A DNA stretch of 64,000 nucleotides from Candidatus Sumerlaeota bacterium (GTDB taxonomy: Bacteria > UBP6 > UBA1177): contig SLOD01000011.1 in assembly GCA_007132725.1 (NCBI GenBank), forward strand, positions 117-64,116, written 5' to 3'. Below are positions 366 to 27,724 of this stretch, piece after piece. Position 1 is the first letter of the stretch. Each line of letters begins with the position of its first letter. A program made the translations under genes and the position numbers. Below the pieces are notes generated by a model. It worked only from the letters and a program-made list of their open reading frames with translations. It was not told the DNA's origin and ran no database searches.

Positions 366-1325
366 TCATTCTTTTTCTATCATTGAAAGAGATATCTGAT
401 GGTACCACAGCCATAGAAGACCTAAAATAGTAACGGGAATGATCTGGGACATATGTAAAACAACAGCAACCGCCATTCTCTTTTCATAAAGTATCGCAAA
501 AAATCTTAAAGAATAAACTATAGCTGCCTGAAATACTGCCAGTCCACCCGGTGTAGGTGCCGCAAGCATCCCGAGATTTGCAGCACAAAGCATAAAAATA
601 TAGCCGACAAGAGGAATTTCAACACCAAAAGCTCTGGAAATAAGTATATATACAACAAGCTCCATAGACCAGACAAAAAAACTGAGAAAAGTTACGGCAA
701 AAAACGCTTTAGGAGATTTAATGGAAGATGCCCCGGAAATAAATTTTTCAGCGACATCAACAAAAAAAGAAAGAACTTTAAACTTTTTTCTTATAGAAAA
801 CAGTATCTTTTCCGGTATTTTTGAAAATGTACCAAACATTATAAAAAGAAAAAGGAGCATGAAAAAAGAAAAGGCAAACAAAGCGAGAGTTTTAACATTA
901 GGAGGAAGAGGGTAAATAAAAAGAATAACAAAAAGAAGAAAAGCTATTGTAAGCCCGTCAAACACCCTCTCCACAAATATTGAAGCTAACACTGATGTTT
1001 TACTCACTTTTCTTCTATTTCCAGTCACCCATGCCCTGGCAAACTCACCTATCCTTACCGGCATAATATTGTTTACAGCATATCCGCTGATAGTGAGCAT
1101 CGTCAGTTCTCCGACCTTGAAATCTCCAATATGAGAAGTGAGAAGTTTCCATCTCAACCCCCTTACAGCAAAAGAAAGCAGATAAAAGAATACTCCACTC
1201 AGTATAAGCAGAGATCTTCCTTCAAAGAGGTATTCCCTAAAAAGAACCATATCAAGATCTTTAAGAAGAAAATAGAAAAGAAAAGCTGTGAGAAAGAAAC
1301 TTAAAATTGTCTTATACTTTTTCAT
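366..1325 (-). CDS. UPF0104 / lysylphosphatidylglycerol-synthase-TM-like (flippase-like) integral membrane protein.
   Basis: Polytopic membrane protein of 319 aa with the family-typical C-terminal PTPGGLAVFQ (PGG[LIV]G[VA]xE-like) motif. Confidence 0.55.
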   Translation of the reverse strand: MKKYKTILSFFLTAFLFYFLLKDLDMVLFREYLFEGRSLLILSGVFFYLLSFAVRGLRWKLLTSHIGDFKVGELTMLTISGYAVNNIMPVRIGEFARAWVTGNRRKVSKTSVLASIFVERVFDGLTIAFLLFVILFIYPLPPNVKTLALFAFSFFMLLFLFIMFGTFSKIPEKILFSIRKKFKVLSFFVDVAEKFISGASSIKSPKAFFAVTFLSFFVWSMELVVYILISRAFGVEIPLVGYIFMLCAANLGMLAAPTPGGLAVFQAAIVYSLRFFAILYEKRMAVAVVLHMSQIIPVTILGLLWLWYHQISLSMIEKE

Positions 1326-2068
1326 TAACTTTTATTCCCGCTCTCTATAGAAAACCGGACGACCCTGTTAAACTCAGAAACAAGATCCTTCATACCTGAC
1401 AATACAGAATCAACTCTACCGGTTCTTGAAAAAGATTCAAGGTCTTTCGCTATTTCTGCCAAACTTGTCGCCCCTATACTTGCTGCAGAACTTTTGATCG
1501 TGTGGAAATTTCTCACCATCAGCTCTTTATCGCCTCCTTTTCTAAGGACATCTTCTATCTCTAATATCCTTTTTTGAGTATCAGCAATAAAAAGATCAAA
1601 AAGTTCTTTTGCCCAGCAAGAGTCGCCGTCAGCCGAAACCATAAGTGTTTTAATGTCTACCGGAGAAGTGGAGGGACTATTTTTAAACAGGAGTTTCCTC
1701 AACATTTTTTCCAGAATTTCAACATCAACAGGTTTTGAGATAAACTCGTCCATTCCGGCATCTGTACAAAGCTTTCTGTTTTCTTCAAGATCATCTCCGG
1801 TAACAGCAATGATGCTTGTCTTTTCCAGATCATTTACCCTTTCTATCTGTCTTATTTTTTCAGCAACTTCATACCCATCCATCTCAGGCATTTTGCAGTC
1901 AAGCAAAATTGCAGCAGGCTTTTTTTCATTAAAAACTCTCAAAGCTTCCAACCCGCTCTTTGCTGTTAAAACTTCATAACCGAGCTTTTTAACGATCTTT
2001 GATTCGATCTCGATATTCAGATCGTTGTCATCTACGACAAGAACAATCTTTTTATCCATAACTACCAC
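1325..2068 (-). CDS. Response-regulator receiver domain fused to a C-terminal Hpt (histidine phosphotransfer) domain.
   Basis: N-terminus IVLVVDDN...LLDCKMPEMDG...KP is the CheY-like DD/D/K signature. C-terminus HTIKSSAASIGA matches the Hpt HxxKG/S-S-A-xxGA motif. Confidence 0.7.
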   Translation of the reverse strand: MVVMDKKIVLVVDDNDLNIEIESKIVKKLGYEVLTAKSGLEALRVFNEKKPAAILLDCKMPEMDGYEVAEKIRQIERVNDLEKTSIIAVTGDDLEENRKLCTDAGMDEFISKPVDVEILEKMLRKLLFKNSPSTSPVDIKTLMVSADGDSCWAKELFDLFIADTQKRILEIEDVLRKGGDKELMVRNFHTIKSSAASIGATSLAEIAKDLESFSRTGRVDSVLSGMKDLVSEFNRVVRFSIESGNKS

Positions 2069-2081
2069 CTTCTCTTCCGGC

Positions 2082-3350
2082 TTAATCGTTTTGTGTTTTG
2101 CTATATATCCGTCTCAATTTGTTTTTAAGTCTTTCCATCACTTCAAAGTTAAAAACAGGGCTTCTCCATGAAGAAAGAGAATTGTTTTGGTACATCGGTT
2201 CCTTGTCAAAGTCAAGAAGACTTTCTTTTAAATGTTTGTCATAGAGAACTGTCCCGGGAACAGGAGAAAATTCGCTCAAATAAGGTCTGGCTCCAATGTT
2301 ATCAACAAAATCTATTGTCTCCTCTACCTCCTCTACAGCCTGTCCCGGAATACCGCAAAGAAGATATACCCCTATCTTATCTTTCCCGGATCCTGACATT
2401 TTTAACATCTCAACAACATTTACCAACTGATCCCTGTCTGTTTTTCTGTCAAAGCGGTTAAAAGCTGTTTCAAATCCGAATCTCAGTTGGGGAAAGTCAT
2501 AAAGATTAAAAATTTTGCATAATTCGTTATCCACTTCTTTTAAATGAAGACCGTTGGGGGTGTGAAAACGGTACTTTTCCGGGGGAATATTTTTTAAAAA
2601 TTCTTTTAAATATCTCCCCTTCTCAAGAAGAAGAGCATCATCATAAAAAGCTACATCCGTGAAGCCGGTCCTTTTATTCCATGCTTCAAGGTCATACACC
2701 TGCTTTTCAATGTTTTTTATCTTAACTTCAGGATAAAACAGGGAACTTGAACAGTAGGAACATCTGTTGGGACATCCTTCCACAAGGTTTGCAGGAAAAA
2801 ACTTCAAATGATCAACATATCTTGATCCTGTTCCTGTGATCTCTTCATTCACAGGATATTTTCCAGTCACTGCGTGCACACCCTTAATACCATTAAAAAC
2901 ATTAGGAATAAGTGTTGCCGCTGTTCCCCCAACTTCAATTTCAACCCCGGGGAACACCTTTAAGACAATATCTATTGTTGAGATTACCGATCTGTACCAG
3001 TAGGTCATGCCGGTTGATATTAATATTTTATCAGGGACATCTGTTTCCATAAGGAGTTTTTTGATCTTGTTGTCTGATGCTCCGAAACGGTTGAATTTTC
3101 GTCTTACAAAAAACAGTTCTTCAGGTTTATCCACTTCTTTTTTCCAATAAGAATGTCTTCCCCACGATCTGTAAGCGGGAGGGTAAAAGCCGTTTTCCCC
3201 TATTTCTCTGCCGTCAAGAAAATTTAAATAAGTTACATCATCCCCTCTTTTTTCAAAGTGCTCCATTATCCTTAATAATCCTAACGGAGCTGCCCATAAA
3301 TTATAAGCAGTAAAATCTTCCACAGGAGGATTTATAGTGAGTACCTTCAT
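2082..3350 (-). CDS. B12-binding-domain radical SAM enzyme.
   Basis: CPNRCSYCS (CxxxCxxC) radical SAM cluster motif; N-terminal region resembles a cobalamin-binding Rossmann domain. Ends 14 nt upstream of the REC-Hpt gene. Confidence 0.7.
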   Translation of the reverse strand: MKVLTINPPVEDFTAYNLWAAPLGLLRIMEHFEKRGDDVTYLNFLDGREIGENGFYPPAYRSWGRHSYWKKEVDKPEELFFVRRKFNRFGASDNKIKKLLMETDVPDKILISTGMTYWYRSVISTIDIVLKVFPGVEIEVGGTAATLIPNVFNGIKGVHAVTGKYPVNEEITGTGSRYVDHLKFFPANLVEGCPNRCSYCSSSLFYPEVKIKNIEKQVYDLEAWNKRTGFTDVAFYDDALLLEKGRYLKEFLKNIPPEKYRFHTPNGLHLKEVDNELCKIFNLYDFPQLRFGFETAFNRFDRKTDRDQLVNVVEMLKMSGSGKDKIGVYLLCGIPGQAVEEVEETIDFVDNIGARPYLSEFSPVPGTVLYDKHLKESLLDFDKEPMYQNNSLSSWRSPVFNFEVMERLKNKLRRIYSKTQND

Positions 3351-3360
3351 TTATTTAATG

Positions 3361-3771
3361 TCAGATCTTGAAATTATCGGGAAAAAGTTCACTCAGCAAA
3401 ACCCTTTTTTCGATTTCACCATTATCCGCATTAACAAGAACGATCTCCATGCCGGGATTAAAGTCGGCAAGCACCTGTCTGCAAATTCCACAAGGAAAAA
3501 CAGCTTTCCCGTCCAGAACAGAGGCTATAACTATTGCAATAATAGTTTTATCTCCATTGGTTACAGCATTGAACAATGCCGTTCTTTCAGCACAAACCGT
3601 TGCCCCGAAAGAAGAGTTTTCAACATTAACACCGTCATACATTTGTCCCGATTCTGTTATAATAACAGAGCCAACCTTGAACCCCGAATAAGGAGCATGT
3701 GCATTTTTTCTTATTTCAACAGCCCTTTTAACAGCTTTTTTCAATATGAGATCATCCATCTTTCCGCTCAA
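3361..3771 (-). CDS. cdd: Cytidine deaminase.
   Basis: 136 aa with the zinc-binding CAE...PCGxCRQ motifs (CAERTALFNAV, PCGICRQVL). Confidence 0.85.
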   Translation of the reverse strand: MSGKMDDLILKKAVKRAVEIRKNAHAPYSGFKVGSVIITESGQMYDGVNVENSSFGATVCAERTALFNAVTNGDKTIIAIVIASVLDGKAVFPCGICRQVLADFNPGMEIVLVNADNGEIEKRVLLSELFPDNFKI

Positions 3772-4624
3772 GTAAAAAAGATATGAAACGGGTCATCAGT
3801 TGAGAAAATTTTTCTTCAACAAGAGCTGCATTTTCCGTTACCTCTTCATGTGTGAGAGGATCGGAGGATATTCCCGCAGCTTTATTTGATATAAAACTTA
3901 TACCGGCAACCTCAATTCCCGCATGTTTGGCAGCTATAACTTCCGGAACTGTTGACATTCCAACAGCATCCCCTCCTGTTTTTTCGATCATACGGATCTC
4001 AGCAGGCGTCTCAAAAGAGGGGCCGGTCACTCCAGTATAGATTCCTTCTTTTAAATGGAGAGATATCTCCTGTGCAGCTTTTTTAAGTAAAAGTCCAAGC
4101 TTTTTGCTGTATACATTTGACATATCAGGGAATCTGTCACCAAACTGATCTAAATTTCTGCCTATCAAAGGGTTTGTTCCCATCATATTGATATGATCCC
4201 TTATGATCATAAGATCCCCTGCATTAAAATCCCGGTTTACTCCTCCGGCCGCATTCGTTACTATCAGCTTTTTTATCCCAAGTTTTATCAAAACCCTGAC
4301 AGGAAAAACAACCTCCTCCATTTGATAGCCTTCATAGTAGTGTATTCTTCCCTGCATTATCCAGAAAGTTTCAGAACTATCTCTGAACCTTGCAAGAACA
4401 AGCCTGCCCTTGTGTCCTGTTACTGATGAAACCGGAAAGTCCGGTATATCCCCGTATGATATTTCAAAAACATTTTCTGTTTTTTCAGCAAAATTTCCTA
4501 ATCCGCTTCCCAATATTACAGCAACATCGGGAAGAGAGTATTCATATTGAGCTGTTTTTTGCTTTATGAACTCTACAGCATTTAAAATTTTTTCCATTAT
4601 CCCACCACTGGCATCATATCTCAT
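3752..4624 (-). CDS. punA: Purine nucleoside phosphorylase (PNP/MTAP family I).
   Basis: GSGLG phosphate loop and MSTVPEV...ISNKAAG core. Likely true start at MEKILNAV (about 4597). Confidence 0.75.
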   Translation of the reverse strand: MRYDASGGIMEKILNAVEFIKQKTAQYEYSLPDVAVILGSGLGNFAEKTENVFEISYGDIPDFPVSSVTGHKGRLVLARFRDSSETFWIMQGRIHYYEGYQMEEVVFPVRVLIKLGIKKLIVTNAAGGVNRDFNAGDLMIIRDHINMMGTNPLIGRNLDQFGDRFPDMSNVYSKKLGLLLKKAAQEISLHLKEGIYTGVTGPSFETPAEIRMIEKTGGDAVGMSTVPEVIAAKHAGIEVAGISFISNKAAGISSDPLTHEEVTENAALVEEKFSQLMTRFISFLLERKDG

Positions 4625-6033
4625 TATAAATATCTGTAGAAAGCCCTGTAAGCTTTAAATGTGTGGTAAATATCAGCTTTGGAAGCAACCTCTAATGGAG
4701 CGTGCATTGAAAGAAGAGGAGTGCCGCAGTCAACAACATCCATGCCATATTCAGCAATGAACATCGCGATTGTTCCACCACCACCTTGATCCACTTTACC
4801 AAGTTCAGCTGTCTGCCACTTCACACTGTCCTTATTAAAAGCACTGCGGCATTCTGCAACAAATTCAGCATGAGCCTCATTTGAATTGCTTTTCCCTCTG
4901 ACGCCGGTAAATTTAGTGAGACATACACCCCACCCTATTTTGCCGGAATTCATTTTTTCCATTGTTCCGGCCCATTCAGGGTCTATGCCGGCATTTACAT
5001 CGGCACTGAGAAATTTACTGTCAGCAAGATTGTTTATAAGCGTGTTGTAGTCCCCCTTGCCGTAAAGGTTTATTATTTTATTTACAGCCCGCTCAAGAAT
5101 GTTTGAATTTGCACCCGCATTCCCTTTCGACCCGATCTCTTCTTTATCAAAAAACATTGCGATCTTATTCTTTTTTGATTTTCCACAATCAAAAAGAGCT
5201 TCCATCGCAGCATAGGAACACACTCTGTCATCCTGACCATGTGCTCCGACAAAACTTCTATCAAAACCTATATCTCTTGCCTTGCCTGAAGGAACCAACT
5301 GAAGCTCGGAAGATACAAAATCTTCTTCAGAAAAGCCGTATTTGGAGTTGAGATGATCCAATATAGCCAGTTTTACGGCATCTTTTTCATATTTAAATTT
5401 ATACGGTATGGAGCCGACAAGAATGTTAAGATTTTCACCCTCTATTACTGTTCCGGCTTTTTTCTGCATTTGATCCTGGGCAAGATGAGGAAGAAGATCG
5501 TTTATTGTAAAAACCGGATCTTTATCATCTTCTCCTATACATACATCTATCTTTTTGCCGTTTTCAAGGATAACAACCCCGTGAAGAGCAAGAGGTCTGG
5601 TTACCCACTGATATTTTTTTATTCCACCATAATAATGAGTTTTGAAATAGGCCATATCCTCCGCTTCGTAAAGCGGATAACCCTTAAGATCTATCCTCGG
5701 AGTATCAATATGTGCCCCGACCATTAAAAAACCATCCTTGAATTTTGTATCATTTATTTCAGCAAGAACACATGATACATTGTCAAAGTTGATAAAGAGC
5801 TTTTTATCTTTCGAGGTTGCCTTATCAATATTGACATAACCTTGTTCAGAAGCTTTTTTTTCTATGTACTTGACAGCCTCCCTTTCAGTTTTAGCATTAT
5901 CCAGAAAAGATTTATAGCCTTCAGAAAATTTCATAATTACATTAAGCTCTTTACCGGAGATACCTTCCCATCCCGATTTTTTAGTGTAAGTCAACTTTTT
6001 CGGGTCATTGTTTTTTTCTTTTTTCTTCATCAT
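4624..6033 (-). CDS. M18-family (aspartyl/aminopeptidase 1-like) zinc aminopeptidase.
   Basis: 469 aa with HIDTPR...D...EE...H-type metal ligand spacing typical of the M18/M42 clan. Confidence 0.6.
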   Translation of the reverse strand: MMKKKEKNNDPKKLTYTKKSGWEGISGKELNVIMKFSEGYKSFLDNAKTEREAVKYIEKKASEQGYVNIDKATSKDKKLFINFDNVSCVLAEINDTKFKDGFLMVGAHIDTPRIDLKGYPLYEAEDMAYFKTHYYGGIKKYQWVTRPLALHGVVILENGKKIDVCIGEDDKDPVFTINDLLPHLAQDQMQKKAGTVIEGENLNILVGSIPYKFKYEKDAVKLAILDHLNSKYGFSEEDFVSSELQLVPSGKARDIGFDRSFVGAHGQDDRVCSYAAMEALFDCGKSKKNKIAMFFDKEEIGSKGNAGANSNILERAVNKIINLYGKGDYNTLINNLADSKFLSADVNAGIDPEWAGTMEKMNSGKIGWGVCLTKFTGVRGKSNSNEAHAEFVAECRSAFNKDSVKWQTAELGKVDQGGGGTIAMFIAEYGMDVVDCGTPLLSMHAPLEVASKADIYHTFKAYRAFYRYL

Positions 6034-6203: not shown

Positions 6204-6821
6204 TTGTCAATGTTTTTTGCAACTATGGAGGCTGGCATGACTTATTTACCCCTTTCCTATCTTCTGGGATCTAGAGCAAAAGTGGACATTCTCAGAATTT
6301 TGGTTAGCAAGCAGAATTTTACTGGAAGAAAAATCGCAACTCTTAGCAGTACCAACCCTAATTCAAACAAAAAGGCTCTTGATTTTCTTCTTGAAACAGG
6401 GCTGATCAACAGAGAGCATGTCGGAAATGCTTTTCACTACAGTTTAAACGAAAACCATCTTCTTTATGAGCCTGTAATAAATCTTTTTAAAGAAGAGGAA
6501 AAAACCGTCAACAAAATAATGAAAGCGGGTAGTTCTTTTATAGAAGAATATGCCCCTAAAACTTTAGCAGGCTTCATATCGTATCTCAAAAGCGACCTTG
6601 TCCTCACATTGCTTGCCCACTCTTTCCCGAAAGAAGAAATGAAAAACCATATCTTTGAAAAAACCGGGTTTAAAGTTTCTATCGAAGTAATAGATACTTT
6701 GAATTTAAGCGAAAGCGATATTACACGATTTATAGACAGATCTTACTTTTGGAATAATTACAAAACGATCATGAAAATGATCAACTCAAGAGATGTCGTT
6801 AAAAACTTTTTTAACTTTTAA
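6204..6821 (+). CDS. Hypothetical protein with an N-terminal winged-HTH-like region. Likely true start is the ATG at 6237 (MTYLPLSYLL).
   Basis: GGAGG sits 6 nt upstream of 6237. VDILRILVSK...GLINREHVGNAFHYSL resembles an ArsR/MarR-type wHTH. No enzymatic motif seen. Confidence 0.4.
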   Translation: MSMFFATMEAGMTYLPLSYLLGSRAKVDILRILVSKQNFTGRKIATLSSTNPNSNKKALDFLLETGLINREHVGNAFHYSLNENHLLYEPVINLFKEEEKTVNKIMKAGSSFIEEYAPKTLAGFISYLKSDLVLTLLAHSFPKEEMKNHIFEKTGFKVSIEVIDTLNLSESDITRFIDRSYFWNNYKTIMKMINSRDVVKNFFNF

Positions 6822-6836
6822 GACCGGAGGATAATA

Positions 6837-7253
6837 ATGGACAGAAAAAAAATGACCGTACTGGTTCTTGACGATGAGGAAAATATTCTTTCCAGCCTTA
6901 AAAGAATACTTGAAGGATGTGGTTATACTGTCATTACAAAAAGTAAGCCGGAAGAGGCTATTGATTATGTACGGAACAATGTTGTTCATATTGCATTGCT
7001 GGATATCCTTATGCCGAATATGGATGGAATAACAGTCCTCAACATAATTAAAGAGATCAGTGGACTGACTCAGGTTGTAATGATGAGTGCATACAGCACC
7101 GTGGATCGAATAGTATCAGCACTTGAAAACGGAGCCAATGATTTTCTGCTAAAGCCTTTTGATAATATTGATGCTTTTATTTCCATCATAGAAAATTCAG
7201 AAAGCAAACTTTTAAGATGGCAGAAAATATTATCTGAAACCGGAGCAATTTAA
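6837..7253 (+). CDS. Stand-alone response-regulator receiver (CheY-like).
   Basis: VLVLDDEEN...LLDILMPNMDG...S...KPF signature. Strong RBS GGAGGataataATG. Confidence 0.8.
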   Translation: MDRKKMTVLVLDDEENILSSLKRILEGCGYTVITKSKPEEAIDYVRNNVVHIALLDILMPNMDGITVLNIIKEISGLTQVVMMSAYSTVDRIVSALENGANDFLLKPFDNIDAFISIIENSESKLLRWQKILSETGAI

Positions 7254-7254
7254 T

Positions 7255-8526
7255 TTGACGACCCACCCTCAGTCAAGGCTAACCCATTTTCCCATACAGG
7301 ACGTTAATCTGCCCTCTTCTTTTGCGGCAGATTTTTTAAGTGAATTATCAAAAGCCACAGAAAAAGATAAAAACGGAGAAAATTTACATCACAGTTTAAG
7401 AGTCGCTGTCATTGCGCATAAAATAGGGAAAAAAGCCGGTTTAGATAAAAAATCTCTCAAAGAGCTGTTTTTTTCTGCTTTACTCCATGATATAGGCGGA
7501 GTGATCACCACTCAACATGTGATGGAAGATATTGTTCAAACACCCGATATTTTGGGTCAGAAAAATGACTTTTTTATTTTTTCACATCCTCATAGAAGTG
7601 AAACCATGTTACAAAGCTTTCCAACTTTCAGGGCAATTAGTGAAGTTGTAGGATCCCATCACGAATTTTTTGATGGAAGCGGCTTTCCAGCAGGTCTGTC
7701 AGGAAAGAACATCCCTTTTTTATCACGAATTATCAGAATTGCCGATACTGTTGATATATTGTTGAGACTCCACACTTTCAATAAGTCAGATGAACTACTC
7801 GGGCTTCTGAATATCATTGCGGGAGAAGAATTTGATCCTGATATTTATAAAATTTTTGTTGAAATTGTGACCGGAACAAATTTGCTTGAAAAATTAAAAA
7901 CTGCTGAAGTGGTTGAAGCTGAAATCTCTCAAATAAAAAAAACTATGGAAGATGACTATTATTTCTCCTCTCCGGATACAATAAACCGGTTTTTTAAAAC
8001 TGTTGCTATTTTAACAGACAATTTAACATCTTTTGAAGATAATCACTCTTTAAGAGTTGCGGAAATTTCTGTTCAAATAGCTTATCTTCTTGATCTGGAT
8101 CAGGAAGAAGTGCTATCTATAAGGTGGGCTGCATTTCTTCACGATATTGGCAAACTTGTCGGGAATAGAGAAGTATATACTAAAAAAGAGAAGCTATCAG
8201 AAAAAGAGTGGTTAATGATAAGAACCCATTCTCAAAGATCCTACGACATTATTAATAAAATAGGGGGCATGAAAAAAATTGCCTACTATATTTTACACCA
8301 TCATGAAAACTTCGATGGAACAGGATATCCTGAAAATCTTTCCGGAAAAAGAATACCTCTTGCATCAAGGATTCTCAGAGTGGCTGATGCTTTCGATGCC
8401 ATGACATCAAACAGAATATATCATAGAAAGAAAGATTGGCAAAGAGCATTGAAAGAGTTGAGAAAATATTCTGGAACTCAGTTCGATCCGGAAATAGTTG
8501 AAACTTTTTTCGCTAATATTTCGTAG
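7255..8526 (+). CDS. Tandem HD-GYP domain protein (c-di-GMP phosphodiesterase family), TTG start 1 nt after the REC stop.
   Basis: Domain 1: HHSLRVA...LHDIGG...HHEFFDGSGFP (GYP degenerated to GFP). Domain 2: NHSLRVA...LHDIGK...HHHENFDGTGYP...D (canonical). Confidence 0.75.
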   Translation: MTTHPQSRLTHFPIQDVNLPSSFAADFLSELSKATEKDKNGENLHHSLRVAVIAHKIGKKAGLDKKSLKELFFSALLHDIGGVITTQHVMEDIVQTPDILGQKNDFFIFSHPHRSETMLQSFPTFRAISEVVGSHHEFFDGSGFPAGLSGKNIPFLSRIIRIADTVDILLRLHTFNKSDELLGLLNIIAGEEFDPDIYKIFVEIVTGTNLLEKLKTAEVVEAEISQIKKTMEDDYYFSSPDTINRFFKTVAILTDNLTSFEDNHSLRVAEISVQIAYLLDLDQEEVLSIRWAAFLHDIGKLVGNREVYTKKEKLSEKEWLMIRTHSQRSYDIINKIGGMKKIAYYILHHHENFDGTGYPENLSGKRIPLASRILRVADAFDAMTSNRIYHRKKDWQRALKELRKYSGTQFDPEIVETFFANIS

Positions 8527-8568: not shown

Positions 8569-10593
8569 TTATCCTTCTTCCTTAGGCTCTTCCTCTTTAG
8601 GTTCTTCTTTAGGTTCCTCTTTAGGTTCCTCTTTAGGTTCCTCTTTAGGTTCCTCTTTAGGTTCCTCTTTAGGTTCTTCTTTAGGTTCCTCTTTAGGTTC
8701 CTCTTTAGGTTCCTCTTTAGGTTCCTCTTTAGGTTCCTCTTCCTCGGGTTCTTTTTTGGGATCCTCCTCAGACTTTACTTGAGGCTCTTCTTCTTCAGAT
8801 TTTTTCTTTTTCTTTGCTTTTGGAGCAGCCTTGGCTTTTTTTTCAGGTTCCGTTTTTTCCACTTTATCTCCATCAGGAGATTCTTTGTCTACTTTTTCCG
8901 GTTGTTCTTCAGGCTGTTCTTCAGCTTCTTCTTTTTCCAGAACTTTGAAACTATCCCCTATAGAACCAAGTTTTTCGGGCACCTTTTCGACTTTTGCAGA
9001 TTCTTCAATATTTTCCTGCAACTCCTTGTCACTTACAGCTTTGATACTCAAAGATACTTTTCTGTCTGCATCGGAAATGGATTTAATTATAACTTCCATT
9101 GTATCTCCGACATTGTATTCCTTATTTTCATCTTCGAATTCCGACCTATGTACAAGACCTTCAATAGTATCAAAAACTTTTACGAAAACTCCAAAATCAG
9201 CTATTTTTACAACTTCAACCTCGATCTTTTCTCCCGCTTCGTGCTGTTCTTTGAATATTTTCCAAGGATCTTCTGTGAGTTGCTTTACTCCAAGAGAGAA
9301 CCTTTGTTTTTCGGAATCTATGTTAAGCACCATAGCTTCAACTTCATCCCCTTTCTTATAGTATTCCGAGGGATGTTTAAGCTTTCTGTCCCATGTTATG
9401 TCCGAAGTTCTGACTAAACCATCGATTCCGTCTTCTACACCTACAAAAATACCAAAATCTGTAATATTCCTTATGGTTCCTTTGACAATGGTGTTTACAG
9501 GGTATTTCTCTTTCAACAGATCCCACGGATTAGGTTCGATCTGTTTCATACCCAAAGATATCCGTCTGTTTTCAACATCAATTTCAAGTATTTTAACTTC
9601 GACTTCGTCCCCTATCGCCACCATTTTTCCAGGATGTTTTATTCTACGGGTCCAAGACATTTCAGAAATATGGATCAGACCTTCAATACCCTTTTCAAGC
9701 TCAACAAAAGCTCCGTAGTCTTCAAGAGAAACAACCTCACCTGTTACAACCGTTCCAACACCGTATTTTTCAGTAGCATACTTCCATGGATCTTCAGTTA
9801 TCTGCTTTATTCCAAGACTTACTCTTTCAGACTCTTTATCAAATTTGAGTATTTTAACATCTACTTCATCTCCGATCTTAAACATTTCTGACGGGTGATT
9901 TACCCTGCCCCAGGACATATCCGTGATGTGGAGTAAGCCGTCAATTCCACCCAAGTCAACAAAAACTCCGTAATAGGTTATATTTTTTACAAGCCCTTTG
10001 ACTATGGTTTCTTCAGCAAGCTTTTCAAGTGTGGAAGCTTTTAAAGATTCTCTTTCTTTTTCAAGAAAATCTCTTCTGCTTATCACAATGTTCCCTTTCT
10101 TTTTGTCACATTTGATAACCTTGAAATCAAAATTTCTCCCTATCAGCTCATCAACATTTTTAATAGGACGGAGAGCAACTTGTGAATTTGGGAGAAAAGC
10201 TTTCACCCCAATATCAACTGCCAATCCGCCATTTACTTTTGCAACAATAGTACCATTTACCAAAGAACCTTCATCATAAGCCTTTTCCACTGTCTCCCAG
10301 ATCTTAAGTTTTTCGGCTTTTTCTTTTGAAAGACAAATGTTCCCCCCTTCATCTTCCCATTTTTCAACGATGACCTCTACCACATCTCCAACTTTGAGAT
10401 TACTGATCTCTTCTGCTGAAAACTCTGAGGCGGAAATCACACCGTCACTCTTTAGACCTACATCCACAAGGATGAAGTCTTTTCTGACAACACGAACCTC
10501 TCCTTTACAAAGTTCTTCGCTTCCCATCTCTCTTTCACCGGGAAGAAATTCTTCAAGCATTTCTTCAAAACTTTTTTTTGTTTCATCCGTCAT
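8569..10593 (-). CDS. rpsA: 30S ribosomal protein S1 (six S1 domains) with a ~120-aa Lys/Glu/Pro-rich C-terminal extension ending in 12 x PKEE(P).
   Basis: Repeated S1-domain signature (G.V.G.V...GaFV.l..g.dGLlHiS.....r) six times. Confidence 0.85.
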   Translation of the reverse strand: MTDETKKSFEEMLEEFLPGEREMGSEELCKGEVRVVRKDFILVDVGLKSDGVISASEFSAEEISNLKVGDVVEVIVEKWEDEGGNICLSKEKAEKLKIWETVEKAYDEGSLVNGTIVAKVNGGLAVDIGVKAFLPNSQVALRPIKNVDELIGRNFDFKVIKCDKKKGNIVISRRDFLEKERESLKASTLEKLAEETIVKGLVKNITYYGVFVDLGGIDGLLHITDMSWGRVNHPSEMFKIGDEVDVKILKFDKESERVSLGIKQITEDPWKYATEKYGVGTVVTGEVVSLEDYGAFVELEKGIEGLIHISEMSWTRRIKHPGKMVAIGDEVEVKILEIDVENRRISLGMKQIEPNPWDLLKEKYPVNTIVKGTIRNITDFGIFVGVEDGIDGLVRTSDITWDRKLKHPSEYYKKGDEVEAMVLNIDSEKQRFSLGVKQLTEDPWKIFKEQHEAGEKIEVEVVKIADFGVFVKVFDTIEGLVHRSEFEDENKEYNVGDTMEVIIKSISDADRKVSLSIKAVSDKELQENIEESAKVEKVPEKLGSIGDSFKVLEKEEAEEQPEEQPEKVDKESPDGDKVEKTEPEKKAKAAPKAKKKKKSEEEEPQVKSEEDPKKEPEEEEPKEEPKEEPKEEPKEEPKEEPKEEPKEEPKEEPKEEPKEEPKEEPKEEEPKEEG
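8584..8750. repeat. Near-perfect 15-bp tandem repeat (ttcctctttaggttc x~11) at the 3' end of rpsA encoding the PKEE repeats. Not a CRISPR array (no spacers).
   Basis: Direct reading. Confidence 0.85.
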
Positions 10594-10729: not shown

Positions 10730-13700
10730 TTGGGGCTGATGAGAGCTTATGCTCTAAGAAAATTAACTGAATGTTTGGTTAAAATTATTAATATAACTGT
10801 ATTGGAGGCAATCTTGAAAAAGTTCTTCTTCCTCTCTTTAGTTCTCTTTTTATCAATCTTACCGGAATATCTATCGGCAGATAATGTTGCGGTGTTCCCT
10901 ATCGGAGCCAGCCAAAGAAGCGAATGGAGTCTTGCAAAAGATGTTGACAGGATCATTGACAGAGATCTTCATAAAATAAGTGCTGCCAAAGCCTTGTCTT
11001 TTAGAGAAATCCTTTCTGCCGCTAACAGGAAACTTCTTGCAAGCTGCAGAGCTGATCTTAACTGTCAAAGGGAGATTTCCACAAAAGCAGGACGAAGAGA
11101 TATAGACTTTTTCCTTTTCTCAAGGCTCAGATTTGCTGAAAACAGAGATGTAGTTGTACAGACATATCTTTTTGATAGAAGATACAGCCGGCTTGAAACG
11201 GTTACACTTGAGATGGATTACAATATTTTTGCGGATGAAATAGCAGATAAACTTTTCCAAGCATGGAACAACATGCTGTCCAGACATGTTACCAAAGCAG
11301 CCCCTCCACCTCGCCAAAGGTTCGATGATGATTTTGATGATGATTTTGACAGGAGAGACAGGAGAAGAGAGAGAGAAGATTATGGAAGACCCGCCCCCAG
11401 AACATCGGAAGCTATAATTGCAGAAGGTTTCAGAGCTTATGCTGACGGCAATCTAAGACAAGCGAGATCCCTTTTCCAAAAAGCCGCTTCAAGAGATGTT
11501 GTTGCTCAAAGGCTTTTTAACGCTGTCGATGAGATCGGAAAATATTTAGCAAGAGCAAATGCATCCATAAAGGCGAAAAGATATGAAGAAGCTATTCCAA
11601 TTATAGCTAAAGCGGAAAGCCTTGATGAATCAATAAAAACCCTTGGTCAGAAATACGGAGTATTTTATCAGGAACCTGTCGAAAGAAAAACTTACCTTGA
11701 ACCTACACCAAGAGACATGAAGGTTGTAGAGTCTATACATAAAAGATATGCAGGAAAAACTGAAAAAGCAAGGAGAGACAGGGCTGCCGGAATATCGGAG
11801 ATAGACAAGTGGATAAACCAGAGGATCCGGGATAGAGAAGCAAAGATGAAGCAGTTTGTTGTTGATTCCGAAAACGCTGCTGCCCAGGAAAAGAAGGAAC
11901 TTGCTGAACTGAGAAAAGAAATAAAAGAGCTTCGCCACAAATGGGAACAGGAAGATGATGAAATAGAACAGAAAATCGTTGCTCTTGAAAGCAACCTGAC
12001 TTTGCTTGAACAAAGGGTTAAGGGTGTTGTAAAAGTATCAACAGAAAAAGAAGAAAAAGCAAGGAAGGCGGAGCTCGCAGCAGTAGATAAAAAATATAAG
12101 GAGCTTTTGAAAAAACTTCGTGAAGAAAGAAATGCTTTTTATGAAAAGCAAAAAGCGGAACTTGAAGAAGGTTCAAAAAATGTAGAAGCAAAAGTTGCGA
12201 AACTCCAGAAGCAAAAAAGTGAAAATGAGGAAGCTATAAGAAAGATAGATAAAAAGATAGAAGCTGCTACCAGAGAGTTTGAAGAATCAGAAAGAAAATA
12301 CTCAAGAGGAACTGAAGGGGTTAGGCTGAAACAGGAAGACGAAGACAGAAGATTCGCCGTTGAAGTTGAGAAGGAATATCAGGCTAAATTCGATGAATTA
12401 AACGAAAAATTAAGAGCTTATGATAAAAAAGATGCGGAGAGAAGAGAAGCCCTGAAGGTATTTGACAGAGAAATAGAAGACTTCCTTATGAAAAATGTGG
12501 AAATTATGTCTGCGTTTCAGGAAGATGTTGAAAAAGAAAGAACCGTTCTTGATAAAAAGTATAAAGGAAAGAAAGAAACCGCCGCTTCAGATGCTGAAAA
12601 AGAGTGGAACAAAAAACTTGAAGACTTTACTTCAGAAAAAAATGAGATAGAAGCCAAAATAGCAGAAGAAGAAACTCCGGCTTTAAAGAAACAGTTGGCA
12701 CAAATTGAAAAAAAGATATCAGCCCATGAAGAAAACAAAGACTCGTTTATCGCAGAAAAAGTTATGCAGGTGGAAATGGAACATGAGATGAAGTCTGCAG
12801 AACTTGATATGAAGCTTGTAAACAGGAACAACGAGCTTCAAAAAGAAAATAATGCTTTCAGAGATAAAAAACTGGCTGAAAAAAAGAAAGCCGAAGCCGA
12901 CTACAAAAATTTCCTCAAAAGAAAAGAGGATTTTAGAAAAAGCATAGAACGACAGGTAGAAATGGCACAGAAAGACAGAGACAATAAAATCGAAAAACGT
13001 AGAAAAGAAAGAGGTGCTCTTGCCACTACTTGGGAAAAAGAAGCAGAAAAAAGAAAACTTGCTTTTGAAAAGTCTATACAACCTGACAGAAATTTAAGGG
13101 AAAAACTTATTAAAGCAAATGAAAAGATCGACGATGATATTGTAAAAATCAATGATGCCTGGGAAAATCGGAGTCAAGATATAAGAATAGAACACCATAC
13201 CTCCTCAGAAAAATTTGAGGAAAATTGGAAAGAGCGATTCTCAAAAACAGAAGAAGAGTTTAAAGAAGCCAGAGAAGCTGTCGAAGACAAGTATGCTGAT
13301 AAACAACTGCAAGCCAGAGAAGCCCAGAAACGACAGAGAGTTGAATGGGAAGAAGCGATACAGGCTTTAAATGAGAAAAAAGCAAGGAATCAAAAAGAAA
13401 GACAAGCTATACTTGATCAAAAAAGGATGGAATGGGAAGAAAGACAGGCTGAAAGAAAAAGAGAAGAAGAGCAGAGAAAAATTGACAGAGAAAACTTTGC
13501 CGAAGAAATGAAAAGACTGAATACAGAAGATCGGGCTGAAGCAGCTATGAAGCGGAAAGATGTTGAAAGAAGATTCAAAGAAGCCACTGGCGATATATAT
13601 CAAGCTCAAATTGACGAAATCCGCAGCAAATTTCCTGACGATTTCAGATACACCAGAAGAAGAGAAGTTGTAGGAGTAAGAGCAAGCGAAAATATCCAGC

Positions 13701-13993
13701 TATTAAAAGCCAGCGCTCTTGCTCAAAGCGGACTTTTAAAATTACAGGACAGAGATATTCTCAATGCAAAAAGGCTTTTTGCCGAAACTCTGTTCCTTGA
13801 CAGTAACAACAAGATAGCACTGGATGGTATGAGATCCATTGAACTTACTGCGAAATCAATGTACTGGGAAGCTTTCGGAATGAGAGAAACAGACAGGGCC
13901 AAGGCAAGAGAAATATTTTCCTTGCTGGTACAAACACTGATGCCGTCCAGCGAATATTTTGTCAGAGCTAAAATTGCACTCGAAGACTTATAA
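10730..13993 (+). CDS. Large secreted or periplasmic coiled-coil protein of ~1060 aa. Probable true start is TTG 10814 (MKKFFFLSLVLFLSIL signal peptide) with GGAGG at 10804-10808. Architecture: ~130-aa N-domain, DDDFDDDFDRRDRRRERE linker, ~700 aa of E/K/R-rich heptad coil, C-terminal TPR-like helical domain.
   Basis: Signal peptide and extreme charged-coil composition read from the translation. No catalytic motifs. Its 3' end overlaps the dxr 3' end convergently by 6 nt. Confidence 0.55.
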   Translation: MGLMRAYALRKLTECLVKIINITVLEAILKKFFFLSLVLFLSILPEYLSADNVAVFPIGASQRSEWSLAKDVDRIIDRDLHKISAAKALSFREILSAANRKLLASCRADLNCQREISTKAGRRDIDFFLFSRLRFAENRDVVVQTYLFDRRYSRLETVTLEMDYNIFADEIADKLFQAWNNMLSRHVTKAAPPPRQRFDDDFDDDFDRRDRRREREDYGRPAPRTSEAIIAEGFRAYADGNLRQARSLFQKAASRDVVAQRLFNAVDEIGKYLARANASIKAKRYEEAIPIIAKAESLDESIKTLGQKYGVFYQEPVERKTYLEPTPRDMKVVESIHKRYAGKTEKARRDRAAGISEIDKWINQRIRDREAKMKQFVVDSENAAAQEKKELAELRKEIKELRHKWEQEDDEIEQKIVALESNLTLLEQRVKGVVKVSTEKEEKARKAELAAVDKKYKELLKKLREERNAFYEKQKAELEEGSKNVEAKVAKLQKQKSENEEAIRKIDKKIEAATREFEESERKYSRGTEGVRLKQEDEDRRFAVEVEKEYQAKFDELNEKLRAYDKKDAERREALKVFDREIEDFLMKNVEIMSAFQEDVEKERTVLDKKYKGKKETAASDAEKEWNKKLEDFTSEKNEIEAKIAEEETPALKKQLAQIEKKISAHEENKDSFIAEKVMQVEMEHEMKSAELDMKLVNRNNELQKENNAFRDKKLAEKKKAEADYKNFLKRKEDFRKSIERQVEMAQKDRDNKIEKRRKERGALATTWEKEAEKRKLAFEKSIQPDRNLREKLIKANEKIDDDIVKINDAWENRSQDIRIEHHTSSEKFEENWKERFSKTEEEFKEAREAVEDKYADKQLQAREAQKRQRVEWEEAIQALNEKKARNQKERQAILDQKRMEWEERQAERKREEEQRKIDRENFAEEMKRLNTEDRAEAAMKRKDVERRFKEATGDIYQAQIDEIRSKFPDDFRYTRRREVVGVRASENIQLLKASALAQSGLLKLQDRDILNAKRLFAETLFLDSNNKIALDGMRSIELTAKSMYWEAFGMRETDRAKAREIFSLLVQTLMPSSEYFVRAKIALEDL

Positions 13994-24586: not shown

Positions 24587-27500
24587 TCAACTATTATCAA
24601 CATCTTTTATTTTTGAAACCTCTTTTTTTAATTTAGAAGTTTCGGTATTAAGTTTTTTGGAAACCTGATAAATGCTGTCAACCATCCCGGTATTTTCCTG
24701 AGTTATCTTTCTGATATCACTTAAAGAAATATCAACCGAGCGCACCTCGTCAGTATGGTCTTCGATTATTTTTCTTACATCGTTCATTTGTCTTGAAATG
24801 GTCTTGAACTGACCTATTATTTCACTGATAAATTTTACCGTATTGTTAACGGATGACCTTCCTGAAACAACTTTTTCAGAAGTATCATCTATCAGTTTTT
24901 TTATTGTCACGACAGCATTGGAAGTTTGTAAAGAAAGTTCTCTGACAGAATCTGCCACAACAGCAAAGCCTTTTCCGGCATCACCTGCTCTGGCTGCTTC
25001 AATAGCGGCATTAAGAGAAAGGAGGTTTGTCTGGAAAGCAATATCATCTACAACTTCAACTATGTTTGAAACCTCTAAAGCACTGTATTCTATCCTTTCT
25101 ATTGATTCCACAGCTTCGCTGAGGACGGAAGTGGAGAGATCGGCTTTTTTTGAAATATCAGAAACCGTTTCATGCATGACCTGTACTTCATCTTTTGTTT
25201 CCTCAAGCTTGCCTGTTATATCAGACAATGTAGAAGATGCTGTATCTATCATTGCATAAGTTGCATTAAATTTTTCAGCGGTCATACCCGTATTCGATGA
25301 TATTACTTTAGATATATCTCCGAGAGTATCAGAAAGTTTTTGAACATGCAGTATTATGTCTTTAAGATTTTTCGTTCTGGTCGCAATTGTGCTGCTCATA
25401 GTAGTTTCTCTATCCTTTATCTCAGCACTTTTCTTTCTGATATAGGACACTGCCATGTATCCGGCAGCAAGAAGAATAATAAGCCTAAACCACCATGTCT
25501 GCCAGAAAAAAGGTTTAATGACGATAATGAGAGATACCCCCTCATTATTCCACACATTATCATTGTTGGCTGCAAGCACCTTGAATTCATACTCTCCGGG
25601 ACCTAAATTAGTATAGAAAGCATTTCTCTGTGTGCCGACATTTCTCCATCTGTCATCAAAACCCTTCAATTTATATTTAAATGTCACCTGATCAGGAAAA
25701 AGTAAGCTCAGCCCGGTATATTCAAAAGAAACCATCGTTGTACCCGGTTCGAAAGAAAACCTCTTTCTGCCATGGACAGGATAAGTGACATCATCTATAG
25801 TTACAGATGTAATATGAACAGGAGGCACCACAGAGTTGTGTCTCATATCTCCCGGATCAGCAACAACCAAGCCTTCTGCAGTAGGCACCCATATTCTGCC
25901 ATCTCTGCTCCTCCAGATGTTAGGCTGTGTTCCTCCGTTACACTCAGGAGTTAAAAGACCATCTTTAAACCCGAAAGTTCTGGGTTCGACAGTAGAAGTC
26001 CTTCCACTAAGAAAAGAGTCAAGGTCACTTTTCTCTATAAATTTTATCCCCTTGTTGGATGTCAACCATAAGTTACCGTTGAAATCCTCAGTAACATCGA
26101 AAATAGTTCTTGTATCCAATCCCCTGCTTCTGTCAATTGTTACTGCCCCCAGCTCTTTGTCATAAATAGTGAGTCCATTTTCCGAGGCAAAAAACAGTCT
26201 TCCGTCAAAAGCGGAGTAAATAGACAAGGTCCCAATATTCTCAAGATTTGTAAATTCAGTGATCAGTTTTTCACCTTGAACTCTAAACGGTCCTAACTTC
26301 GTTGCAATCCATATTGAACCCGATCTGTCTTCTGTAATACCCGACAGACCTATATTATCAGTCCCGGGCAAGGTAATAATTTTGTCTCCTTTCATATAAG
26401 CAAGGCCACCTGTAAGCATCCCTATCCAAAGAGTACCTCTTGAATCTTTGAACAGGGCAGAAATGTCTTTGCCCGGCAAACCATCAAACTCATCATATAA
26501 TCTGGCTACTCCGTCTTTCAGCCTTAGGAGTCCTTTTCCATAGACTCCGGCCCACAAAACTCTGTCATTATCTTCAAACAAAGAGAGCACAGTATCATAA
26601 GATTCCAACTTTCCCCTGAAAGTGTATCTTGTCAACTTGTTATCCCTCAACCGGTACAATGCACCCGCCCAGGTTCCAAGCCACATTGAACCATCATGAC
26701 TCTCAAAAACAGGAAAAACTACAGGCTGATCTAAGCCGCTATGTCTTCCATAAGTTATAAACTTCCCCTCCTTGAACCGGTAAAGACCGTAACCGCTGGT
26801 ACCGACCCAGACACTCCCTTCTCTATCCTCAAGGATACTGAAAACATAATTTTTACCTATAGAGCTGACATAGTTATCATCATCGGAACATATTCTGAAG
26901 AGTCCATCGTTGTATGTCCCCACAAAAACACATTCATGGTTATCAACATACAGCCCGCTTATCATTCTGTTAGCAAAAAACTCAGGTCTATATGAGCGGG
27001 ATCTACCAGAGACAGTATCAAACAAATATACTCCGGCACCTCTTGTTCCAAGCAGAAAACTTCTCTCGTCTATAGCCACAGCTTTGGTTATTTCGCGTGG
27101 AAATTTAAGTTCTTTTGTGGCTCTTGTTCCCTGGAGCCTTGAAAAGTAACTTTCTGTTCCAACCCATATTGTCCCGTCACCGCCTTTAATAACTTCTCCT
27201 ACGTTATCTGATGGAAGCCCGGACGATTTATTGATTACTGCTTCAACGCCGTTTTCTCCTAACACAACAAGACCATTTCTCCTTGTTCCAAAATAAAAAG
27301 TTCCATTGTTATCTTCAGCACCGGAAGTGATATTGTTGCTTGGAAGACCTTTTTGAGTATCAAAAATTTCATAGGTTTCATCTATATAGTTAAATTTTAT
27401 AATTCCTCCGCCATCTGTCCCTATCCACAGATAAGGTTTGGTCGAATCTTCCAGAATAAGTTCTGTTTTGTGGTTATCAACAGGAAAAAAGGAGTCGTCG

Positions 27501-27724
27501 TAAACATCCATTTTTATTCCGTCAAATTTAACAAAACCCTCTTCCGTTCCAAGCCACATAAAACCATCTCTTGCCTGAACCATTGTTCTCACAGAGTTTT
27601 GGGGAAGTCCGGACAAAATATCGTAGCTGTCGATCATAAATTGATCAAGGGAAATATCTCTGGATAAACCATCAAGCACCATCATAGAAATAAAAACCAA
27701 AAAATAAACAACTGTTTTTTTCAT
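24587..27724 (-). CDS. Methyl-accepting chemotaxis protein with a large periplasmic two-component-regulator-propeller + Y_Y_Y sensor module, one TM, and a cytoplasmic MCP signalling domain.
   Basis: Signal peptide and repeated Reg_prop-like blades (GLPxNxVxxxxxDxxGxxWxGT). Y_Y_Y-like [18 protein letters not shown], then [20 protein letters not shown]-terminal highly conserved MCP core [31 protein letters not shown]. Confidence 0.7.

Follow-up and report, generated by a model that had tools for sequence, protein, structure and literature searches.

A conserved cassette of radical SAM, REC-Hpt and flippase-like genes in a Candidatus Sumerlaeota bacterium and its possible role at the cell envelope

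A 64,000-nucleotide (nt) stretch of DNA from a Candidatus Sumerlaeota bacterium (assembly GCA_007132725.1, contig SLOD01000011.1, positions 117 to 64,116; hereafter the window) carries near its start three minus-strand genes. They encode a radical S-adenosylmethionine (SAM) enzyme, a protein that joins a receiver (REC) to a histidine phosphotransfer (Hpt) domain, and a flippase-like membrane protein. All three open reading frames (ORFs) are present in the ORF list at the positions given in Table 1, tightly packed and with the domains that a first-pass annotation had read from the sequence alone. Identical public gene products exist for each: P0001 (422 amino acids (aa), radical SAM enzyme), P0359 (244 aa, REC-Hpt protein) and P0121 (319 aa, flippase-like protein). 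These three genes, probably the last of a longer operon, form a lineage-specific conserved cassette whose most likely role is to act on the cell envelope under phosphorelay control, a reading to which we give a probability of roughly 0.4.

The junctions between the genes were read directly. The stop codon of the REC-Hpt gene and the start codon of the flippase-like gene share 1 nt (TAATG), as the first-pass annotation had reported, but its 14-nt gap at the other junction was replaced by two values: the radical SAM stop codon is followed after 13 nt by a GTG at 2068 and after 22 nt by an ATG at 2059. The ATG is likely the true start of the REC-Hpt gene because a Shine-Dalgarno-like AAGGTGG box stands 5 nt upstream of it. 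P0359 aligns to residues 4-247 of the longer form, so the public call also begins at the ATG.

The same annotation described a three-gene operon bounded at 3350. Its genes and their tight packing stand, but the boundary does not, as the minus strand runs on unbroken through genes for cytidine deaminase (CDA), purine nucleoside phosphorylase (PNP) and an M18 aminopeptidase, with gaps of at most 10 nt or overlaps. Because of this spacing, the radical SAM, REC-Hpt and flippase-like genes are probably the tail of a six-gene transcription unit, M18-PNP-CDA-rSAM-REC-Hpt-flippase-like (rSAM, the radical SAM gene), with the M18 gene as its probable first member. The CDA gene is an upstream gene of this probable operon and lies outside the conserved cassette. 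A 170-bp divergent intergenic region separates the M18 gene from a plus-strand operon (6204-8526) that encodes a 205-aa protein with a weak DUF7342 match, a stand-alone receiver and a protein with two HD_5 stretches. Scans for consensus promoters and terminators gave background-level signals only, and the operon boundaries are not defined by them. An Rfam scan of the whole window found no RNA family, and PADLOC returned no defence-system match for the three proteins, only weak matches at the level of the receiver and radical SAM domains (E>=9e-5).

Table 1. Positions of the cassette genes, their domains and the neighbouring genes in the window
Feature	Position	Strand	Remarks
Radical SAM enzyme, 422 aa	2082..3350	-	N-terminal Rossmann-type (B12-binding-like) domain and radical SAM barrel
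CxxxCxxC [4Fe-4S]/SAM motif, C193-x3-C197-x2-C200	2751..2774	-	Invariant across the 22 aligned sequences
REC-Hpt phosphorelay protein, 247 aa from GTG	1325..2068	-	244 aa if started at the ATG at 2059
Receiver domain, residues 9-123	1700..2044	-	PF00072; phospho-acceptor D57 at 1898-1900 (LLDCKMP)
Hpt domain, residues 155-226	1391..1606	-	PF01627; phospho-His H189 at 1502-1504
Flippase-like membrane protein (LPG_synthase_TM / UPF0104 / TIGR00374), 319 aa	366..1325	-	MprF membrane-domain-like fold
Cytidine deaminase (CDA)	3361..3771	-	TIGR01354, 123.8 bits; 10-nt gap to the radical SAM gene
Purine nucleoside phosphorylase (PNP)	3752..4624	-	NF006054, 363.9 bits; overlaps CDA by 20 nt
M18 aminopeptidase	4624..6033	-	NF002600, 658.8 bits; overlaps PNP by 1 nt
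Stand-alone receiver	6837..7253	+	PF00072, E=4.4e-25
Tandem HD-GYP-type (HD_5) protein	7255..8526	+	PF13487, E=8.3e-65, two stretches; begins 2 nt past the receiver gene

The direct fusion of a receiver to an Hpt domain, proposed in the first-pass annotation, is upheld by the Pfam scan, in which both Response_reg (PF00072, 87.1 bits, E=1.2e-24) and Hpt (PF01627, 45.9 bits with a cut-off of 24.6, E=6.9e-12) lie above threshold. Read from the translation, the receiver signature comprises the acidic pair D13-D14, D57, the T of AVTGD and the K of SKPV, residues that are kept in the REC-bearing orthologues. The Hpt domain contains HTIKSSAASIGA, which includes H189 (HTIKSS), and residues H189, T190, K192, S194, G199 and A200 are invariant in 9 aligned Hpt orthologues of the window's clade. 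As judged from these residues, this is a canonical receiver-Hpt protein with both phospho-sites intact. In NCBIfam it comes closest to the REC-Hpt C-termini of ArcB, BarA and TorS, and the 150 best matches in a set of 1.84 billion representatives are nearly all hybrid kinases of 800-1700 aa with a C-terminal REC-Hpt module. Since the best matches are hybrid-kinase C-termini, the protein looks like the C-terminal half of an unorthodox kinase, now detached. Stand-alone proteins of about 250 aa account for 2 of these 150 best matches, which makes plausible the earlier description of the architecture as uncommon.

The flippase-like protein matches LPG_synthase_TM (PF03706) over its full length (E=7.5e-42) and carries the PTPGGLAVFQ motif, in agreement with its earlier assignment to the lysyl-phosphatidylglycerol-synthase-TM/UPF0104 family. 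Its fold, like that of the MprF membrane domain, also places it in the LPG_synthase_TM / UPF0104 / TIGR00374 family. It consists of membrane helices only, without a second Pfam domain, and it is not MprF proper, which has a C-terminal cytoplasmic synthase domain that the 319-aa protein lacks. Because this aminoacyl-phosphatidylglycerol synthase domain is missing, the protein cannot itself make lysyl-phosphatidylglycerol. HpnL was also rejected as an identity: TIGR03476 gave no match, and TIGR00374 was the only NCBIfam model matched at E<=0.01. The six-gene operon, the divergent operon and ten further large ORFs of the window contain no hopanoid-associated genes.

The third protein is a radical SAM enzyme by its PF04055 match (43.7 bits with a cut-off of 29.5, E=4.3e-11). 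C193, C197 and C200 are the sole invariant cysteines in a 22-sequence family alignment, which gives no hint of an auxiliary cluster. A predicted local distance difference test score (pLDDT) of 90.5 makes the AlphaFold model a confident one. The model shows a five-stranded Rossmann-type N-terminal domain, whose strands 2 and 3 are separated by a conserved insertion of about 60 residues, and after it a barrel that resembles those of many radical SAM structures. Compared with solved enzymes, the protein scores 24.7 with AprD4, 23.6 with MgmA, 23.3 with TsrM, 23.0 with CysS and 22.8 with RimO, and a search of PDB sequences with the family profile gave AprD4 as the only clear match (E=2e-6). Among solved structures AprD4, a cobalamin-free dehydratase of sugar diols, is the nearest relative.

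The N-terminal domain bears on the earlier label of B12-radical SAM enzyme, of which the radical SAM part holds and the B12 part is uncertain. The B12-binding model PF02310 scores 13 bits (E=0.09) in the window protein, below the cut-off of 32.1. Close relatives reach 21-25 bits, a distant deltaproteobacterial relative (P0110) reaches 48 bits, and 21 of the 22 aligned family members match at E<=0.01. Because almost the whole alignment matches PF02310 and the window protein stays below threshold, the domain appears to be homologous to B12-binding domains and to have diverged in the window's clade. AprD4 is built of the same two domains and has no bound cobalamin (PMC12931638). With a sub-threshold PF02310 match and the same fold present in a cobalamin-free enzyme, the label of cobalamin enzyme is not established.

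The NCBIfam matches of the radical SAM enzyme are all far under their cut-offs (ApyD 41.7 against 750, PhpK family 35.7 against 600), and none assigns it to a known non-lipid pathway, an outcome that leaves the earlier interpretation uncontradicted on this point. The enzyme is not a MiaB/RimO methylthiotransferase: it lacks the three conserved cysteines of the N-terminal domain, and TIGR00089 scores 19.6 against 251. The family comprises 2683 detected homologues, most of them labelled just as B12-binding radical SAM proteins. On these profile comparisons the window enzyme belongs to a large uncharacterised family and to no curated one.

The arrangement of the three genes was followed in 132 loci (given L-numbers) collected around relatives, which were scanned with tblastn and with hidden Markov models of the Hpt and flippase-like proteins. 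A metagenome scan that used the single radical SAM protein as query gave nothing and was repeated with an alignment. The order radical SAM gene, Hpt-containing gene, LPG_synthase_TM gene is found in the window, L085/L005/L092, L087-L090, L091/L118 and L128. In L095 the radical SAM gene is followed by a REC-Hpt gene, at which the contig ends. The order therefore recurs in at least four complete lineages and one cut contig, with 60-68% mutual identity of the radical SAM proteins, and the three families do co-occur in related genomes. Further radical SAM, Hpt and flippase-like proteins lie on contigs of identical length (97,171; 71,682; 20,875; 11,881; 4,913 bp), an indirect hint at more cases.

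The surroundings of the cassette are less constant than its order. Upstream stand M18-PNP-CDA in most lineages and, in L085, two pilin-like genes that come after a glycosyltransferase cluster. Downstream there may be a lipoprotein gene, GreA-RecG, a gene for an Lcl_C protein or an MFS transporter gene. Both flanks are changed in L085, where no HD-GYP gene occurs within 8 kb. Shared flanks alone do not account for the conservation of the cassette. The phosphorelay partner is a REC-Hpt protein in the window, L085, L092 and L095, an Hpt domain alone (about 120 aa) in L087, L091, L118 and L128, and a 926-aa PAS-HisKA-HATPase-REC-Hpt kinase in L086. It changes architecture and retains its position and its Hpt motif.

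Each link within the cassette can be considered separately. Each of the seven distinct loci in the window's clade that have both an Hpt and a flippase-like gene shows an overlap between the two (of 1, 4, 4, 4, 4, 14 and 14 nt). The pair is also present in L131, from the 45% radical SAM clade, where 4 nt separate a PAS-REC-Hpt gene from the flippase-like orthologue behind it. The 12.9 kb of that locus contain no B12-like radical SAM gene, and the radical SAM gene adjoining its flippase-like gene was discarded as a partner, being a lipoyl synthase gene on the other strand. In L086 the radical SAM gene keeps the Hpt-bearing kinase as its neighbour and the flippase-like orthologue lies about 950 kb away on the same contig. 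Locus L130 (6001-7900), from the L086 genome, contains this orthologue and a different radical SAM gene of 312 aa that fits no curated family and overlaps it by 11 nt. This is a second, independent pairing of the flippase-like gene with a radical SAM gene; the small radical SAM gene overlapping a flippase-like gene recurs in no other locus.

Relatives of the radical SAM gene outside the cassette have neighbours of several kinds. In L001 a GT2-GT2-GT4 run of glycosyltransferase genes ends in a gene that overlaps the radical SAM gene, and in L003 the radical SAM gene is followed by genes for a GT2 enzyme and a polysaccharide deacetylase. In the rumen clade it is preceded by an aminotransferase gene, and in L127 it lies between genes for a 2-hydroxyacid dehydrogenase and an enzyme of glycoside hydrolase family 13 (GH13). 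A GH13 link (radical SAM then GH13 in L127, GH13 then flippase-like in L132) was set aside as generic alpha-amylase homology. An apparent REC-Hpt gene beside the radical SAM gene in L021 was likewise rejected, as it encodes a REC-SpoIIE phosphatase.

These observations are consistent with a plausible signal-linked envelope-modification module that would work as follows. A histidine kinase not linked to the cassette would phosphorylate D57 of the receiver, and the phosphoryl group would be passed on to H189 of the Hpt domain, which would act on or with the flippase-like protein. The Hpt domain may in addition signal to the receiver/HD-GYP pair located 5 kb upstream and so tie the cassette to turnover of cyclic di-GMP (c-di-GMP): the stand-alone receiver could accept phosphoryl groups from the Hpt domain, and the HD-GYP-type protein is a candidate c-di-GMP output of the relay. 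The radical SAM enzyme would carry out a radical transformation of a polar, probably sugar-type, group on a membrane-anchored envelope precursor at the cytoplasmic face, and the flippase-like protein would then carry the product across the membrane. What has been observed of this scheme is domain identity and gene order only.

A shared envelope function is ranked first for four reasons. The cassette survives rearrangement of both flanks. The links between radical SAM and Hpt genes, Hpt and flippase-like genes, and flippase-like and radical SAM genes each recur alone. Relatives of the radical SAM gene repeatedly adjoin genes for glycosyltransferases, a deacetylase and an aminotransferase. Finally, AprD4, the nearest enzyme of known structure, acts on a sugar ring. 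Further support comes from L035, where the genes of a complete relay run into one for a distant relative of the radical SAM enzyme. A more specific version is doubtful: that a phosphorelay branch controls or reads out the translocation of an envelope lipid, whose head group would be remodelled by a new radical SAM family, through a direct partnership of the Hpt domain with the MprF-flippase-like protein.

Several findings weigh against a shared envelope function. The link between the radical SAM and CDA genes is at least as persistent as that between the radical SAM gene and the Hpt gene or the genes downstream, and part of the synteny may for this reason be simple inheritance. The gap between radical SAM and Hpt genes ranges from 9 to 287 nt and is loose in some loci. 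In L131 (4578-5996) the PAS-REC-Hpt protein has Asp in place of the phospho-His (READAIKG against xFHTIKS); this domain may be a pseudo-Hpt or a phosphomimetic variant, and the substitution misfits a simple phosphotransfer role there. Most relatives of the radical SAM gene lack both partners, namely those of the rumen clade, L001, L129 and about 75 loci of the clade at 30-35% identity (Syntrophales, Desulfobacterales and others). The neighbours in this last clade are housekeeping genes: 66 neighbourhoods yielded M16/M20 peptidases, Dtd, IMPDH, DnaE and PhoH, and no functional clue.

Further points on the same side concern the proteins themselves. No HisKA or HATPase domain was found in the 64-kb window by tblastn or in ten of its large ORFs by Pfam, so a kinase for the REC-Hpt protein would be encoded elsewhere. 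In a profile search for fusions of Hpt to PF03706 or PF04055, the 120 matches listed all carry Hpt alone, and neither the 118 flippase-like homologues nor the listed radical SAM homologues gave any domain fusion. Pfam and NCBIfam found no lipid-biosynthetic or glycosyltransferase genes in the window operon. The link from the radical SAM enzyme to lipids, which the first-pass annotation had offered as speculative, failed against the models for lipid-modifying enzymes (ladderane, TIGR04072, 24.6 against 360; HpnJ, TIGR03471, 21.1 against 577.6; Tes, no match at E<=0.01), and the best solved relative is AprD4. The lipid part of that interpretation has no direct support. The cassette is kept in several uncultured anaerobic bacteria, and nothing so far indicates lipid modification.

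The strongest alternative is that the three genes are transcribed together without a shared function, the REC-Hpt protein being a split-off hybrid-kinase module that serves a c-di-GMP relay and the other two proteins having unrelated jobs. The hybrid-kinase C-termini of 800-1700 aa that are the closest relatives of the REC-Hpt protein would fit such an origin, and the window, L086, L128 and L129 all have the receiver/HD-GYP operon in synteny with the M18 operon. A complete relay is encoded in L035 (3848-9338, Syntrophaceae), the only Hpt case in the 30-35% clade: genes for PAS-HisKA-HATPase-REC-REC, Hpt and REC-GGDEF proteins form one run that ends in the REC-GGDEF cyclase gene, and the next gene, which overlaps the run by 8 nt, encodes a relative of the window's radical SAM enzyme at 32% identity. 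The components also separate, as L129 retains M18-PNP-CDA-rSAM followed by an ABC transporter gene, without Hpt and flippase-like genes, and the rumen clade has its radical SAM gene apart from the flippase-like gene. Against independent functions stand the persistence of the L085 cassette with both flanks changed and no HD-GYP gene nearby, the overlap of Hpt and flippase-like genes throughout the window's clade together with the recurrence of the pair in distant L131, and the Hpt-bearing neighbour that the L086 radical SAM gene retains though the flippase-like gene has moved. We regard this alternative as unlikely, yet as the closest competitor of a shared envelope function.

A second alternative takes the Hpt/flippase-like pair as the real unit and signalling as its business, in which the MprF-like protein would sense the membrane or a lipid, or would anchor the relay, and would not transport a product of the radical SAM enzyme, itself a bystander. 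The junction of this pair is the tightest and most widely conserved of the cassette and occurs without the radical SAM gene in L131, where an Hpt domain that lacks the phospho-His suggests a role based on binding. In the rumen clade the flippase-like orthologue is not near the radical SAM gene; it stands two genes away from a gene for a PAS histidine kinase. A signalling role for the membrane protein is at odds with the absence of fusions to signalling domains (0 of 118 PF03706 homologues), with the coupling of the L130 orthologue to another radical SAM gene and not to a signalling gene, and with the position of the radical SAM gene, ahead of the pair in at least four complete lineages and one cut contig. 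These points make it decidedly improbable.

OxsB is a cobalamin radical SAM enzyme that modifies deoxyadenosine phosphates. The least probable alternative, that the window enzyme works with the upstream nucleoside-salvage genes (PNP, CDA) and modifies a nucleoside or nucleotide, draws on the 2-12 nt between CDA stop and radical SAM start in the window, L087, L089, L091, L100, L118, L128 and L129 (a 4-nt overlap in L128) and on the amidohydrolase gene inserted between the two in L086, but it is very unlikely given that the radical SAM gene stands without adjoining PNP/CDA genes in L085, L001, L003, L127, the rumen clade and the 30-35% clade, that the PNP-CDA loci are one syntenic lineage which also keeps the S1, HD-GYP and M18 genes, so that inheritance explains them equally, and that OxsB is a far weaker structural match than AprD4, MgmA or TsrM.

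The preferred reading, an envelope function under phosphorelay control, would matter beyond this locus. No publication joining UPF0104 and radical SAM proteins was found, nor anything relevant on PF03706 or the flippase-like protein, and no earlier description of the three-gene combination was found, all of its parts coming from known superfamilies. The radical SAM subfamily and the stand-alone flippase-like proteins are uncharacterised: stand-alone UPF0104 proteins, HpnL included, have no known function, and the radical SAM family has thousands of members, none of them characterised. The conserved, translationally coupled pairing with an Hpt gene is a testable handle on UPF0104 function. If the reading is true, two-component or c-di-GMP signalling would be tied to the handling of envelope lipids in uncultured anaerobes of digesters and sludge. 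The more specific and doubtful version, in which a phosphorelay branch controls or reads out translocation, would for the first time set UPF0104 proteins (HpnL, YbhN and others) in a regulatory and biochemical context. Should the link be spurious, this would be an ordinary operon whose genes are unrelated.

Other features of the window lie around these operons. Downstream of the cassette, a minus-strand lipoprotein gene begins at 255 and runs off the window start (1-255); within it, at 68-192, a 9-bp unit repeated about 13 times encodes (Asp-Thr-Gly)n, and an 80-aa plus-strand ORF with PVS repeats (76-318) is an antisense artefact of this gene. Beyond the divergent operon, a minus-strand ORF of 674 aa (8569-10593) shows S1-type repeats by eye, and PF00575 S1 matches are found in the syntenic genes of L128 and L129. 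It ends (8590-8741) in an unusual acidic/basic tail, (Pro-Lys-Glu-Glu)n, encoded by a 12-bp unit in 12.7 near-perfect copies. The plus-strand ORF at 10730-13993 (1087 aa) has no Pfam match and comprises an N-terminal hydrophobic segment and a very long Lys/Glu-rich stretch, probably a coiled coil; local purine skew is strong here (GC skew +0.25, AT skew +0.40). Finally, a minus-strand gene at 24587-27724 encodes a 1045-aa protein with Reg_prop beta-propeller repeats, a Y_Y_Y domain and a methyl-accepting chemotaxis protein (MCP) signalling domain. The Reg_prop/Y_Y_Y sensor module usually sits on hybrid kinases.

Known systems resemble parts of the cassette. AprD4, the radical SAM 1,2-diol dehydratase of apramycin biosynthesis (PDB 6FD2), shares about 14% identity with the window enzyme, a match confined to the radical SAM core, and the window has neither an AprD3-like reductase gene nor aminoglycoside genes. 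From the class B radical SAM enzymes (TsrM, MgmA/QCMT, CysS, TokK) the window enzyme is set apart by its low PF02310 score and by the insertion in its Rossmann domain, and it exceeds the cut-off of no methyltransferase family model. MprF, the multiple peptide resistance factor (a lysyl-phosphatidylglycerol synthase/flippase), and the flippase-like protein share the fold of the membrane domain and differ in the C-terminal synthase domain, present in MprF alone.

The hopanoid head-group genes hpnI-hpnJ-hpnK-hpnL offer a genetic parallel. hpnJ encodes a B12-type radical SAM enzyme with a proposed role in ring contraction of the glucosamine head group, and hpnL, encoded with it, a UPF0104/AglD-family membrane protein whose function is not known; the archaeal calditol synthase is another radical SAM enzyme that acts on a lipid head group. 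The genes hpnJ and hpnL are a precedent for a B12-type radical SAM enzyme and a UPF0104 protein together in a lipid head-group pathway, and the GT2 and deacetylase genes beside the L003 relative add to the resemblance. The two systems differ in that the window enzyme reaches 21 bits on the HpnJ model (cut-off 577.6) and the flippase-like protein does not match HpnL. Furthermore, the window operon contains no GT2, deacetylase or hopanoid gene, and hpn genes are not reported with an Hpt protein.

The phosphorelay protein has counterparts as well. Unlike the unorthodox kinases ArcB, BarA and TorS, it has no kinase core and is encoded between radical SAM and flippase-like genes, but their C-terminal REC-Hpt modules align with it, and its L086 orthologue is fused into a complete PAS-HisKA-HATPase-REC-Hpt protein. 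The kinase RpfC feeds the REC-HD-GYP protein RpfG. The receiver and HD-GYP pair encoded 5 kb from the REC-Hpt gene resembles this system, and by analogy the relay of the window may run along a similar path.

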